Shown one piece after another: positions 12,795-61,650 of a stretch of DNA of 64,000 bases. Position numbers and translations under genes: made by a program. The stretch is from Spirochaetia bacterium (GTDB lineage Bacteria > Spirochaetota > Spirochaetia > CADAEX01). The first letter of the stretch is position 1. Each line of letters opens with the position of its first letter. The stretch is from positions 256,001 to 320,000 of the forward strand of contig CAXXHA010000010.1 in the NCBI GenBank assembly GCA_963662265.2. Reading direction: 5' to 3'. The notes under the pieces are model-generated. The model saw nothing but the letters and a program-made list of their open reading frames with translations. It had not been told where the DNA came from and did no database searches.

Positions 12795-13532
12795 CTATTC
12801 AATCTCTTTAGACAATTGCTTTATTCTGTCACGGAGCTCTGCAGCTTTTTCAAAGTCCTCAGATTCAACAGCAGCCAGAAGCTCTCTTTTCATACAATCG
12901 ATTGAATCTGATTTACAGTAGCCCAGCTGTTTAAGAGCTGTTTCCAGGTAATTTATGGAACGGCTTTTTTCCATAAGAAAGATGGAAGAGTCAACTTCAG
13001 GCAGAGATTTCAGCGTAACAATCGCCGATTCCAGAATATCCCTGGCAAGTTCTTTTACATTTTTCTGAAGAGAAATCATTGCACGGGATATTGCATTCAT
13101 TTTAACGATGAAAGGGCGGTACTGAAGAATACTGATTCTGAACTTATTGTCTGAGCTGTAGGTTTCAGTCAGATCACAGATTTTCAGATTATGCTCCGTA
13201 TCTCTGACAACCCTCCCGAAATCGCTTATCTGGAAACAGAGAAGATAACGGTAATAAAACATCCTTGCTTCCTTATCAAGAAGCTCGAGATCTTTATCAG
13301 TAAGAATAAATTCTTTTTCCGAAACATCCAGCCTGTTCTGTATCTGATCCAGAACAGTATCAAACCCCATGTATTTGCTGCCGTCAGGCCTTCCTTCGAG
13401 GACAAATTCACTTATCCCCATCATTTCCCTGACCTGCATCACAGGATTTCCGCGGCTGTCATTTATTATCCTGATGTTTTTAGTGGAATCATATTTCCAA
13501 TCATCAAGAAGCTTCCTTATACTCTGTGACAA
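12795..13532 (-). CDS. UvrB/UvrC (UVR) motif-containing protein
   Basis: C-terminal ELLAAVESEDFEKAAELRDRI; EGRPDG, YYRYL and VVRDTEHNL motifs. Confidence 0.8.
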   Translation of the reverse strand: MSQSIRKLLDDWKYDSTKNIRIINDSRGNPVMQVREMMGISEFVLEGRPDGSKYMGFDTVLDQIQNRLDVSEKEFILTDKDLELLDKEARMFYYRYLLCFQISDFGRVVRDTEHNLKICDLTETYSSDNKFRISILQYRPFIVKMNAISRAMISLQKNVKELARDILESAIVTLKSLPEVDSSIFLMEKSRSINYLETALKQLGYCKSDSIDCMKRELLAAVESEDFEKAAELRDRIKQLSKEIE

Positions 13533-13712
13533 TTAAATTCACCCCATCTTTATCATCTCTTTCCGAAAACAATATCCTCTATATGAATTTATTGTTAATA
13601 AATCAAAAAGTAAAGTGATTTCTGTATATAGTTGTAAGTTCTTAACATTCTCTCAACTCATGCAGCCCGGCTGCTTATTGATGAATTGAGACCTTCTTTA
13701 TATAATAATTTT

Positions 13713-14408
13713 ATGGTTAAAGTAATATCATTAGGGGGCTCTATTGTTGCCCCGGAACAGGTTGATACAGCCTTTTTAAAAGAATTTCATTCACTGATAA
13801 AGAAATATCTTGAGGAAGATAAAAGCAGAAAACTCATCCTTGTAATTGGAGGAGGGGGACCTGCAAGAAGCTATCAGAAAGCATACAGGGAAATTGCCGA
13901 TACACCATCCAGCGACAGGCAGGATTGGATCGGCATTGCAGCAACAAGGCTTAACGGAGAACTTCTCAAGTCTGTATTCGGTGAATTCTGTAAGAATGCT
14001 GTTGTTGCAGATCCTACAGCTGTAAAGGAATTCAATGACAGAATTCTTGTGGCTGCCGGATGGAAACCCGGATTCTCAACAGATTTCGATGCAGTTCTTC
14101 TCGCGGAAAAATTCAATGCGAAAACTGTAATCAATCTCTCAAACATTTCAAAGGTTTATTCTGAAGATCCTAAAATCAATCCATCGGCAGTTCCAATGGA
14201 TAAGATGAACTGGGGAGAATTCAAAAAGCTTGTCGGTGAAGAATGGATACCAGGCAAAAATGTTCCGTTTGATCCTGTAGCAACAAAAAAAGCGGCTGAA
14301 CTCGGCATGCAGGTTATTGTTGCAGGCGGCAGGGACATACAGAACCTTGATCTGATCCTTCAGGACAGACACGATGAGATTGAAGGGACTCTTATAGGTC
14401 CGGAATAG
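13713..14408 (+). CDS. pyrH: Uridylate kinase (archaeal-type)
   Basis: VISLGGS, IGGGGPAR, IGIAATRLN, GWKPGFSTD, VYSEDPK, PFDPVA. Confidence 0.93.
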   Translation: MVKVISLGGSIVAPEQVDTAFLKEFHSLIKKYLEEDKSRKLILVIGGGGPARSYQKAYREIADTPSSDRQDWIGIAATRLNGELLKSVFGEFCKNAVVADPTAVKEFNDRILVAAGWKPGFSTDFDAVLLAEKFNAKTVINLSNISKVYSEDPKINPSAVPMDKMNWGEFKKLVGEEWIPGKNVPFDPVATKKAAELGMQVIVAGGRDIQNLDLILQDRHDEIEGTLIGPE

Positions 14409-14465
14409 GAAACTCAGGAGATAGAATCTAAGACTCTTAAACTGCAGTAAATCCACGGTATTCAG

Positions 14466-14499
14466 CAGCCTGTATAATTTATTTTATGCAGGCTGTTTT
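14466..14499 (+). terminator. Probable pyrH terminator
   Basis: CAGCCTGTATAA / TTATGCAGGCTG stem (one G-U pair) followed by TTTT. Confidence 0.6.
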
Positions 14500-14519
14500 G
14501 CATACAGGACGTATGCATG

Positions 14520-14640
14520 CCGGGCTGGCATGGACGCCCGTTAACGAGGCGAATGACAGGATGTCATTCCCGCAAGGGGACAGGTGTATACCGGGCTGGC
14601 ATGGACGCCCGCAAACGAGGTATATGACAGGAGATCATCC
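14520..14640 (+). repeat. Imperfect direct repeat, two copies with a 71-bp period, containing GGA-loop hairpins
   Basis: CCGGGCTGGCATGGACGCCCG..AACGAGG...ATGACAGGA...CAT at 14520 and 14591. Confidence 0.85.
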
Positions 14641-14910
14641 ACTTTCGCATGAACCGAAGGTATTGGAATGCCCCGGCAATACAGATGACACCGGGCAGAC
14701 AGGGCCGCCTTTTTATACTGCGTACAAAACCAGATAGATATTCAGGTTTAGGAACAGGACGCCTGCCCTGAGACATGAATGATATACGGCACTGATGATT
14801 TAACACGAAGACCTGAGGAACACACAAATTCATACATTTAACTGTTTTTCAGAAAAAAACAGCAGATAATCAGCGATATTCGATGGATATTATATTCTTC
14901 AGTTAAGCAT

Positions 14911-15879
14911 TTACCTGATAAATCCCTCTCTCCAGTGCCAGACAGTGTTTTTATCTGATCCCCCGGGAAAAGGCATTGCATTATTAAAATCAGGGATCCA
15001 GTCACTGCTGTCTTCAAGCTCCTGAATAAATCCGTTTTCAATACCATGGAAATCAAGAAGATCATATACCCTGTCGCTTTCTTCAGAGGAAACTGACCGT
15101 TCAGGATTTTCTCCGTTTTTTCCTGCGGCAGATGGGGAATACTGGAACATCAGGGAAAGGATTGCCCTGTCCATGAATTTCTCAGCATATATTTTAATGA
15201 ATTTTTCAGTCGATTCAATATAGCCGGGCATTACAAGATGCCTTATTATTACCCCTCCCCTGATCATTTCACCGGTTTCAAATATGGAAAAATCTGTCTT
15301 TTTAAGACTGCACATAAGGGAGACTGCTTTGAAGACAGCCTCGGGATAATCAGGCGCATTAAAAAAACGGGAGGAAAATGATGCATCAGCCGTTTTATAA
15401 TCCGGGAGAAACAGATCAACCTGGGAGGAAAGCCTCTCAACAGCCTCTTCAGTCTCATAACCAGAGCTGTTCCATAAAACAGGGATCACAAGCCCGTTCT
15501 TTTTAGCAGCTGAAAGAGCATCAACCACAGAGGGAATAAAATGTGTCCCTGTAACAAGGTTTATATTTTCCGCACCCCGCTCCTGAAGATTAAGGCATAT
15601 TTCAGCAAACTCATCTGTTGAAACTGTTCTGCCCATGCTTTCCCTGCTTATCTGGGAATTCTGACAGAAGGAACACTTCAGGGTACATCCGGTAAAGAAA
15701 ACAGTTCCTGATCCATTTTTTCCGGAGACAGGAGGTTCCTCGCCGCCGTGGAGAAGAGCGGCTGCTATATTTATTTCTGATGACTGACCGCAGTACCCCG
15801 TTTTACCGGCAGTTCTGTCTATACCGCATTTCCGGGGACATAATTTACATGACCTGTAATAAGCTGTTATATCTTTCAC
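14911..15879 (-). CDS. Radical SAM protein, PflX-like
   Basis: CKLCPRKC, GEEPPVSG..GSGTVFFTGCTLKCSFCQN, WNSSGYE, IIRHLVMPG; GTG start inferred from promoter position. Confidence 0.88.
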   Translation of the reverse strand: MKDITAYYRSCKLCPRKCGIDRTAGKTGYCGQSSEINIAAALLHGGEEPPVSGKNGSGTVFFTGCTLKCSFCQNSQISRESMGRTVSTDEFAEICLNLQERGAENINLVTGTHFIPSVVDALSAAKKNGLVIPVLWNSSGYETEEAVERLSSQVDLFLPDYKTADASFSSRFFNAPDYPEAVFKAVSLMCSLKKTDFSIFETGEMIRGGVIIRHLVMPGYIESTEKFIKIYAEKFMDRAILSLMFQYSPSAAGKNGENPERSVSSEESDRVYDLLDFHGIENGFIQELEDSSDWIPDFNNAMPFPGGSDKNTVWHWREGFIR

Positions 15880-16185
15880 ATGAAAATAATAGGGAAAATA
15901 CAGGGATTTATCAAGAAAAGGAAATGCAGCAATTTTTTTACTCGGAATCTGAATGCATTTCAGCAATATCAAAACATGCAGCATGTTTAAATATTTTACA
16001 TTTTGGCAGTTTGAAACAAAACGGCAAATCAAAGGATTCTATTCAGGCAGGAAATTCCTTTTCACACGTGATTATTAACAGATGCAAATCAACTAAAAAC
16101 ATGCAGGCAATTGACAAATCAGCAAGTATCGGGATATTTTAAATAAGCTTCTTAGCTGAACAGCAGATCAGAAGCTTTTATCTGT

Positions 16186-61152: not shown

Positions 61153-61256
61153 CAGCTGTCAAGCTGGCTGTGTCACACTGCTCAGTCACTTACCGCTGCT
61201 ACCTTCCGGTCCTGACGGGGTTGGGTGAAAAGCAATTGCACAGGGCCTGACAACTG
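61153..61256 (-). ncRNA. ffs: Signal recognition particle RNA (small bacterial SRP/4.5S)
   Basis: Helix-8 motif TCAGGACCGGAAGGTAGCAGC within a long stem; upstream of dnaX. Confidence 0.93.
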
Positions 61257-61349: not shown

Positions 61350-61374
61350 TATTTCAGCCACTATCAATGTGTTC

Positions 61375-61513
61375 CGGAGAGAGAGGGATTTGCCTTACAA
61401 GTCCGGACGTCCTGTCCGACCTTTTCAGGCCGCTCGGCAAGCTGGCGCCCCGGCGTCCTGCCGGTCTTACCCTTTCGGGCGCTTGCAGGAGATCAAATCC
61501 CACTTCAACCTCC
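61375..61513 (-). ncRNA. Putative tRNA-linked structured RNA with two AGGAC-loop hairpins
   Basis: GGGATTTG/CAAATCCC closing stem, tRNA-Ser-like 3' end, CCGGC-AGGAC-GCCGG and CGGAC-AGGAC-GTCCG hairpins. Confidence 0.55.
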
Positions 61514-61562
61514 GTATTTAAGGCAAAAAGCATGATTGTTGCTTATCTGCCACAGATAAAAA

Positions 61563-61650
61563 CGAGAGAGAGAGGGATTTGAACCCTCGGAACTGTAAAC
61601 AGCTCAACGGATTTCGAATCCGCCCGATTCAGCCACTCTCGCATCTCTCC
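61563..61650 (-). tRNA. tRNA-Ser(CGA)
   Basis: GCGGA-TTCGAAA-TCCGT anticodon arm; the 3' acceptor strand seems to carry one extra base. Confidence 0.92.

Follow-up and report, generated by a model that had tools for sequence, protein, structure and literature searches.

The window analysed here is a stretch of 64,000 nucleotides from a Spirochaetia bacterium (lineage CADAEX01; assembly GCA_963662265.2, contig CAXXHA010000010.1, positions 256,001 to 320,000 of the forward strand). Our subject is an array of small hairpins with GGA in their loops, located in the 502-bp spacer (14409-14910) between pyrH and a convergent radical S-adenosylmethionine (SAM) gene. The first-pass annotation of this DNA had noted the likeness of these loops to binding sites of the protein CsrA and offered two readings: a discrete sponge RNA of the CsrB/RsmZ kind, or a CsrA-binding repeat resembling repetitive extragenic palindromic (REP) elements. 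The second fits our results much better, whereas a discrete gene was not supported.

Both flanking genes were identified as before, and domain models upheld these identities. pyrH (13686..14408, + strand) encodes a uridine monophosphate (UMP) kinase of the archaeal type, and its open reading frame (ORF) scored 190.7 bits with TIGR02076 (cut-off 158) and also matched PF00696. The bacterial-type UMP kinase model gave only 44.9 bits for 13686-14408, below its cut-off of 243.9. The radical SAM gene (14911..16032, - strand) scored 49.4 bits with PF04055 and matched PF13353. pyrH is the gene upstream of the array and has the same orientation as the strand on which the loops read GGA (the GGA strand, which is the + strand at this locus).

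A terminator-like inverted repeat (14466..14499, + strand) precedes the array. It has 12-bp arms that are 92% complementary and a 6-nt loop; the hairpin proper ends at 14495, a TTTT run extends to 14499 and the first array hairpin begins at the very next base. Together, this structure and the first hairpin (14460-14520) fold at -29.2 kcal/mol (z = -6.6 against shuffles). Having four T only, the hairpin at 14466-14499 fails the rule of our terminator scan.

The array core (14500-14640, + strand) contains four to five GGA-loop hairpins within 140 nt, and every hairpin listed in the first-pass annotation could be read directly from the sequence. Unit 1 starts with H1a (14500..14516; GCAUAC-AGGAC-GUAUGC, with ACAGGACGU at the hairpin tip), as given by sequence and fold. 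Its second module, H2a (14519..14553, delimited by alignments), reads AUGCCGGG, then GGC-AUGGAC-GCC (14527-14538), then AACGAGGCGA. The inner stem of H2a has 3 bp only, and in the minimum-energy fold of unit 1 alone, H2 pairs AUGCC with GGCAU and leaves GGA just outside the loop. Unit 2 comprises H1b (14551..14569; GAAUGAC-AGGAU-GUCAUUC), a small optional hairpin, CCC-GCAA-GGG(G), at 14569..14579, which recurs at loci on contigs C15, C35, C9 and C13, and H2b (14590..14624; ACCGGG, then GGC-AUGGAC-GCC at 14598-14609, then AACGAGGUAU), a duplicate of H2a. A degenerate third H1, termed H1c (14624..14638; AUGA-CAGGAGA-UCAT), follows. The 71-bp duplication previously proposed as the core of the array is real: 14507-14567 and 14578-14638 align over 61 nt with 80% identity at a spacing of 71, and Tandem Repeats Finder reported nothing at a score of at least 30 in the array region. 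Further downstream, at 14690..14709, the 5' part of H2 recurs as a third, decayed copy (ACCGGGCAGACAGGGCCGCC; + strand, 80% identity as a direct repeat). The distal AGGA motifs at 14750, 14756 and 14816 are present as described, but they lie in no conserved hairpin and were dropped as parts of the element. On its + strand the spacer folds more stably than shuffled sequences (z = -4.3) and than the - strand (z = -2.6).

In a comparison of four DNA contig sets, contigs of a second organism differ from this stretch by eight substitutions, with no indels and no change in copy number. Six of these fall within the 502-bp spacer, compared with two in about 1000 coding bases; none affects a GGA loop, and two lie in the AACGAGGCGA stretch.

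A dispersed repeat family related to Bacillaceae-1

The core at 14500-14640 is almost certainly a tandem array, two and a half units long, of a structured repeat that is dispersed and strand-specific; this confidence refers to its identity as a repeat family. To describe this family we used a covariance model, R1, made from 21 units (12 from this genus, including the window unit, and nine from other taxa). The first unit (14497-14541) matched R1 with 50 bits (E 3e-9 for the genome), and a weak match of 16.7 bits was found at window positions 14553-14612 (C10:270553-270612). In this genome R1 gave 15 matches with E < 1e-3 at nine loci; as in REP elements, a short palindromic unit is present in numerous copies outside genes. 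BLAST and nhmmer searches with the unit as query revealed weak relatives with similar modules on other contigs, and about 16 loci could be read by eye, the additional ones carrying H1 loops of the form CAAGGACG or CAUGGAUG.

In all these units H1 consists of a variable stem of 5-7 bp with the tip C-A(N)GGAY-G (ACAGGAYGU, CAAGGACG or CAUGGAUG), and H2 consists of AUGCCGRG followed by an inner hairpin whose loop contains GGA and then by a closing arm; small hairpins are interspersed as optional modules. H1 stems are similar within a locus and different among loci. Across 57 distinct units, the first variable pair of H1 was GC in 28, AU in 16, UA in 6, CG in 4, GU in 1 and another combination in 1, and the second was AU in 20, UA in 17, GC in 10, CG in 6, GU in 1 and another combination in 2. 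The covariation score of H1 was reached by none of 500 shuffles, and controls with slid positions collapsed. These data bear out the first-pass statement that the stems vary while the A(N)GGAY loops stay. Helix 2 was paired in only 58% of the same alignment, in which MAFFT misplaces a gap in H2, and it adds little. Within the class the family was found in six of 151 genomes, this one included, and its arrays in this genus are direct rather than inverted.

Comparison of sequences and models indicates that the family is related, though divergently, to the reverse strand of Bacillaceae-1 (RF01690), a kinship that had not been recognised in the first-pass annotation, nor had the 2015 proposal on CsrA described below. 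A signature scan of 185,579 species genomes returned at least 114 stretches. Among the matches listed were many copies in Evansella, Lysinibacillus, Sporosarcina, Oceanobacillus and Lentibacillus, others in metagenome-assembled genomes of Spirochaetota and Leptospirales and in some Gammaproteobacteria (a Colwelliaceae genome and Thalassolituus), as well as chance matches in coding DNA of high-GC taxa. Signature matches scored 40-64 bits with RF01690 (gathering score 35) on the strand opposite to GGA, and R1, which is built mainly on spirochaete units, scored 28-37 bits with those RF01690 copies. Since R1 matches both the window unit and the RF01690 copies, it links the former to Bacillaceae-1. 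RF01690 itself reached at best 30.7 bits in this genome (C41:18690-18750), which is under the gathering score. An Rfam search of window positions 13500-16000 with E up to 10 gave one chance match to a long non-coding RNA family and none for the array, so that RF01690 and every Csr/Rsm family were without a match there.

In both forms the unit measures about 60-67 nt and comprises two hairpins, whose loops (AGGAY, or RUCCU when the opposite strand is read) and closing pairs are conserved. Also common to both are a conserved AUGCCG linker, probably an inner hairpin nested in an outer stem of H2, and multiple copies with tandem arrays. In the window, the loops of H1a (AGGAC), H1b (AGGAU) and H2 (AUGGAC) are all closed by a C-G pair, as in Bacillaceae-1. 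Instances of RF01690 can be aligned with H1, with the AUGCCG linker and with the inner hairpin, and the outer stem of the window unit is down to GCC/GGC plus mismatches. The spirochaete form differs in this outer H2 stem (GCC...CGAGGC, three Watson-Crick pairs only), in a longer H1 of 6-7 bp, in additional modules (CCCC-tetraloop-GGGG and CACCUG...CAGGUG), in its host, which is a spirochaete and not a member of the Bacillaceae, and in its placement right behind terminators, which is not stated in the available parts of PMC2864571 or PMC4333381. A second motif, TwoAYGGAY (RF01731), likewise has two hairpins with AYGGAY loops, which the AUGGAC/AUGGAU loops of H2 resemble; the H1 loops here, in contrast, are mostly 5-nt AGGAY, and RF01731 matched neither the window region (E up to 10) nor 15 family loci (E up to 1).

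In Table 1 of Weinberg et al. 2010 (PMC2864571), Bacillaceae-1 is classed as likely to be an RNA but not a cis-regulatory one, and a figure legend in PMC4333381 reports that its discoverers were unsure of the strand. In the same paper, Gardner and Eldai (2015) noted that the reverse complements of Bacillaceae-1 and TwoAYGGAY each match the CsrA-binding motif twice and proposed CsrA-binding small RNAs (sRNAs) outside Gammaproteobacteria, with validation then in progress (PMC4333381). The idea of CsrA binding by reverse-strand Bacillaceae-1 is therefore already published in that source, and no later validation of CsrA binding by either motif was found in the literature searched. Copy numbers vary among hosts: BSGatlas holds eight Bacillaceae-1 copies in B. 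subtilis (PMC8208703), and RF01690 was detected in 79 of 151 sampled Bacillales genomes, many of which reached the scoring cap. In a Lysinibacillus genome (G062), eleven head-to-tail units with a period of about 62 nt lie at C1:3800077-3800701, and elsewhere in that genome many units form inverted doublets 8-10 nt apart, which resemble REP doublets forming hairpins (REPINs).

Placement, strand and turnover of the copies

The position of the copies relative to upstream terminators follows a pattern. In 13 loci of this genome, H1 starts 0-1 nt past a hairpin and T-run (nine from an automatic scan, four by eye). It should be noted that the automatic scan for a terminator followed by a hairpin is loose (3773 terminator-like sites, with GGA in 55 of 1023 downstream hairpin loops) and was used just to list family loci. 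At most of the other loci the upstream terminator is stronger than at pyrH. The two congeners (G001 and G002; this genome is G000) agree with this picture, eight of their 11 R1 loci being situated behind a clear hairpin and T-run. The T-run abutment might reflect choice of a target site or survival only where transcription is insulated. A different arrangement was seen in one G001 spacer (L162), orthologous to C25:20300-20400 of this genome, where a family unit directly follows the stop codon and precedes the T-run; the H2 hairpin itself may serve there as the gene's terminator.

The orientation of the copies is bound to the upstream gene. By crude ORF calls (stop to stop, at least 120 aa), the upstream ORF lies on the GGA strand at 15 of 17 loci, and at 12 of the 13 where its nearer end is no more than 150 nt away; seven of eight near upstream ORFs in the congeners are co-oriented in the same way. 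The downstream ORF is co-directional at 13 loci and convergent at five (of 18). In addition, distinct stem arms contain 12 G.U pairs versus three A.C pairs when read on the GGA strand, a small tally with interrelated rows, and in one G001 unit H1 is kept only via two G.U pairs. The G.U excess together with the co-orientation with upstream genes thus favours the GGA strand over the orientation adopted in Rfam. The refuting outcome named in the first-pass annotation, copies in random orientation beside a transposase, did not occur: the copies are oriented and no transposase adjoins them.

Only 28 bp in G001 and 11 bp in G002 separate pyrH from the radical SAM gene, so that the entire spacer of about 500 bp, terminator hairpin and array alike, is specific to this species. 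Two other loci are shared with a congener: one on C17 is common to G000 and G001 and one on C15 to G000 and G002, and both are old but remodelled. No two of the three species have the C25 spacer in the same state.

In these respects the family resembles REP elements with their bacterial interspersed mosaic elements (BIMEs) and the REPIN systems associated with REP-associated tyrosine transposases (RAYTs). Common to them are short hairpin repeats that lie outside genes at their 3' ends, a mosaic of modules, variable copy numbers per locus, and gain and loss among close relatives. However, it is the loops that are conserved and the stems that vary in this family, its arrays are direct in this genus (inverted doublets were seen only in Lysinibacillus), it sits behind the terminator and not before it, and no RAYT-type Y1 gene is flanked by copies. 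An association with RAYT or IS200 was looked for and did not emerge in the genomes checked. Genes for Y1 transposases occur in all six element-bearing genomes checked; this genome has three Y1_Tnp genes, and none adjoined a copy when four family motifs were sought in their 1.5-kb flanks. For G061 and G062, 1.4 kb separates a Y1 gene from the closest copy listed, a distance within chance. We read the element as a REP-like, strand-specific structured repeat, a new spirochaete form of the Bacillaceae-1 kind that is mosaic and trails terminators.

Possible CsrA binding and competing explanations

The genome contains csrA (C8:144951-145109; PF02599, 92.1 bits), with fliW (PF02623, 130.7 bits) directly upstream, and the presence of both genes answers a check proposed in the first-pass annotation. 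The two genes are also adjacent in the described flgN-flgK-flgL-fliW-csrA cluster of T. denticola. The loop match to the CsrA consensus claimed at first pass agrees with the sequence obtained by in vitro ligand selection (SELEX), RUACARGGAUGU, in which AC and GU pair and GGA lies in the loop (PMC7652899); H1 reads ACAGGAYGU and pairs exactly in this manner. The genome's own flagellin genes, which encode FlaB-type protein of 286 aa, provide a further comparison. In each of the two flagellin leaders, a hairpin of this type (CAGGC-AAGGAU-GCCUG or GGC-AGGGAU-GCC) stands shortly before the Shine-Dalgarno (SD) sequence, and the inner H2 hairpin of one G001 unit is identical to the GGC-AGGGAU-GCC leader hairpin. 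CsrA site 1 in flagellin leaders (B. subtilis hag, Borrelia flaB, and T. denticola flaB1 and flaB2, the last two in PMC9481697) has the same C-A(N)GGAU-G on a short GC stem; unlike these sites, the repeats lie outside 5' leaders, and neither an SD nor a start codon follows them. CsrA binding by the repeats is plausible on these sequence grounds.

Our preferred explanation, which we hold tentatively and at somewhat under even chances, is that the array acts as a passive sink for CsrA through read-through tails whose hairpins would bind the protein. The repeat itself behaves like a REP element: it is gained and lost among species and locally amplified by tandem duplication, and its copies settle directly behind the T-run of an upstream gene's terminator hairpin, on the sense strand of that gene. 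RNA of the array would then arise solely as the tail of pyrH transcripts that read through the terminator. Such RNA would show four to five candidate CsrA hairpins of the same kind as those before the flagellin ribosome-binding sites. The array would accordingly amount to a low-level passive sink and not a dedicated, regulated sponge gene.

Several observations weigh against this explanation. Many arrays are located behind terminators with 6-9 T, and because of this placement little RNA is expected, which is a poor design for a sponge. The H2 stems of the window array are weak, and unit 2 by itself folds no better than shuffled sequences (z = 0.08). GGA-loop hairpins are generally not enriched in the genome: a genome-wide count of the kind suggested in the first-pass annotation (stem of at least 5 bp) gave 159 hairpins with AGGAY loops, fewer than the 190 with the reverse complement of this loop and the 194 with AAGAY. 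With respect to csrA, RF01690 occurs in 76 of 145 csrA-bearing Bacillales genomes and in three of the six in which no csrA was found (G190, G211 and G284; the copy numbers found are 2, 10 and 6), indicating no association, although the power of this comparison is low with csrA found in 145 of 151 genomes. Nine of ten element-bearing genomes checked separately have csrA, and the element-bearing relative G013 (90% complete) gave no csrA match. Finally, an Evansella genome carries at least 104 copies and the Lysinibacillus genome at least 70, near-identical and including inverted doublets, and such numbers point to spread at the DNA level.

The strongest competitor, a real possibility to which we give a lower probability, is that the family is a plain REP element or a repeat like a miniature inverted-repeat transposable element (MITE), with no role for CsrA. 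A mobility or recombination protein would recognise its hairpins as single-stranded DNA, and copies would persist behind terminators through targeting or since they do least harm there; alternatively, the role might be structural only, the hairpins being stabilisers of 3' ends or back-up terminators and the likeness to CsrA sites incidental. The high copy numbers just mentioned, the 11-unit array, the frequency of RF01690 among Bacillales and its indifference to csrA all fit this explanation. So do the patchy occurrence in the class, the empty pyrH spacer of both congeners, the turnover of the C25 spacer and the Y1-transposase genes in every element-bearing genome examined, and the exact 0-1 nt junction with the T-run resembles the choice of a target site. 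On the other hand, REP families have conserved stems, and the conserved loops and closing pairs with covarying stems found here are the reverse. A DNA-level repeat also sits less well with the absence of a Y1 gene adjoining any copy, with direct arrays, with the strong bond between orientation and the sense strand of the upstream gene, with the excess of G.U over A.C pairs and with loops whose sequence is the same as in the flagellin-leader hairpins.

A further explanation, which appears improbable, makes the other strand the functional one, as in the Rfam orientation, with RUCCU loops that would pair with SD-like AGGA of mRNAs or have another role. It draws on the Rfam model itself, on the listing of Bacillaceae-1 as a likely non-cis-regulatory RNA and on the convergent radical SAM gene, from which - strand read-through could extend into the array. 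However, the discoverers are reported to have lacked confidence in the strand, a convergent downstream gene exists at only five of 18 loci, and both the G.U excess and the co-orientation described above favour the GGA strand. The array also folds less well on the - strand (z = -1.8, versus -2.7 on the + strand). A unit-like pair of GGA hairpins between two genes of a five-tRNA cluster in the window (61350-61563, - strand) bears on the same question. The pair, CCGGC-AGGAC-GCCGG and GUCGG-ACAGGACGU-CCGGAC, lies inside UUGCCGAG...GGCAA on the tRNA strand and, to judge from this position, is probably co-transcribed in the GGA orientation. The cluster is followed by a signal recognition particle RNA gene at 61154-61252.

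The sponge sRNAs of Gammaproteobacteria (CsrB and CsrC as well as RsmX, RsmY and RsmZ) also have closely spaced GGA repeats in hairpin loops matching the CsrA consensus, but a dedicated sRNA gene of this kind, with its own regulated promoter and terminator and acting as an RNA antagonist besides FliW, is the least probable explanation of all: the hairpin density, the presence of csrA, a TGTATAAT in the upstream hairpin loop that might resemble an extended -10 element, and one G001 array ending in a strong terminator on the GGA strand speak for it, whereas simple consensus scans of 14300-15000 found no sigma-70-like promoter or terminator, the candidate 3' hairpin (14680-14725) is unstable (-7.1 kcal/mol, z = 0.38), no Csr/Rsm family was matched, the spacer has accumulated most of the strain differences, and the array, absent from both congeners, is a dispersed repeat at one of about 16 loci, each behind the terminator of another gene, and not a single-copy regulated gene. 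The host also differs from those of the known sponges in having FliW, which is described as anti-correlated with BarA-UvrY, the two-component driver of Csr sRNA transcription; in the same source, CsrA of FliW-bearing organisms is said to be under the control of a protein instead of decoy RNAs (PMC7652899).

These results show that the Bacillaceae-1 motif family also has spirochaete members, which escape detection by Rfam, and the tie between orientation and the upstream sense strand helps to settle the strand question. They also place the family exactly behind terminator T-runs, with loops that copy this genome's own flagellin-leader hairpin. Should CsrA bind, the family would be a distributed RNA sink for CsrA outside Gammaproteobacteria; if it does not, it would be a widespread REP-like repeat whose loops are strongly selected for some other reader. 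A broader proposal, that Bacillaceae-1, TwoAYGGAY and the spirochaete variant form a superfamily across phyla that couples terminator read-through to the availability of CsrA, seems unlikely. Were it true, weaker termination across a genome would expose high-affinity CsrA sites on dozens of tails and free CsrA-repressed mRNAs such as that of flagellin, and FliW-type organisms, thought to be without RNA antagonists of CsrA, would gain a distributed one.

Other hairpins and repeats in the spacer and the genome

Downstream of the array, minimum-energy folds contain an A/T hairpin on the - strand (14842..14862; CUGUUUUU-UUC-UGAAAAACAG). It received no call from the terminator scan; on the basis of these folds, it might weakly terminate transcription of the radical SAM gene.

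Elsewhere in this genome, several other repeats could be seen. On the + strand of C15 (7000-7600), three tandem units about 204 nt apart hold GCAAAGC-AGGAC-GCUUUGC; they do not belong to the present family, and a terminator-like hairpin and T-run closes each of the two copies whose 3' end was read. Four identical copies of a short hairpin and T-run, each followed by UAUGC-AGGGA-GUAUA, are found on the + strand of C8 (27744, 28330, 45558 and 71218) and probably belong to a repeated element of greater length. At C16:28850-29050 (+ strand), a family locus is followed downstream by direct repeats of about 85 nt (ACAGGAAGAAUGAUAAAAACUUGUUUUUAUCAUAAGCGACAGAGACUUUCG...), and four tandem units of about 90 nt (GGAAAUUCCCAAAGAGCAAUUUCC...GCCGGAAGGAG...) are located at C32:115650-116100 (- strand).

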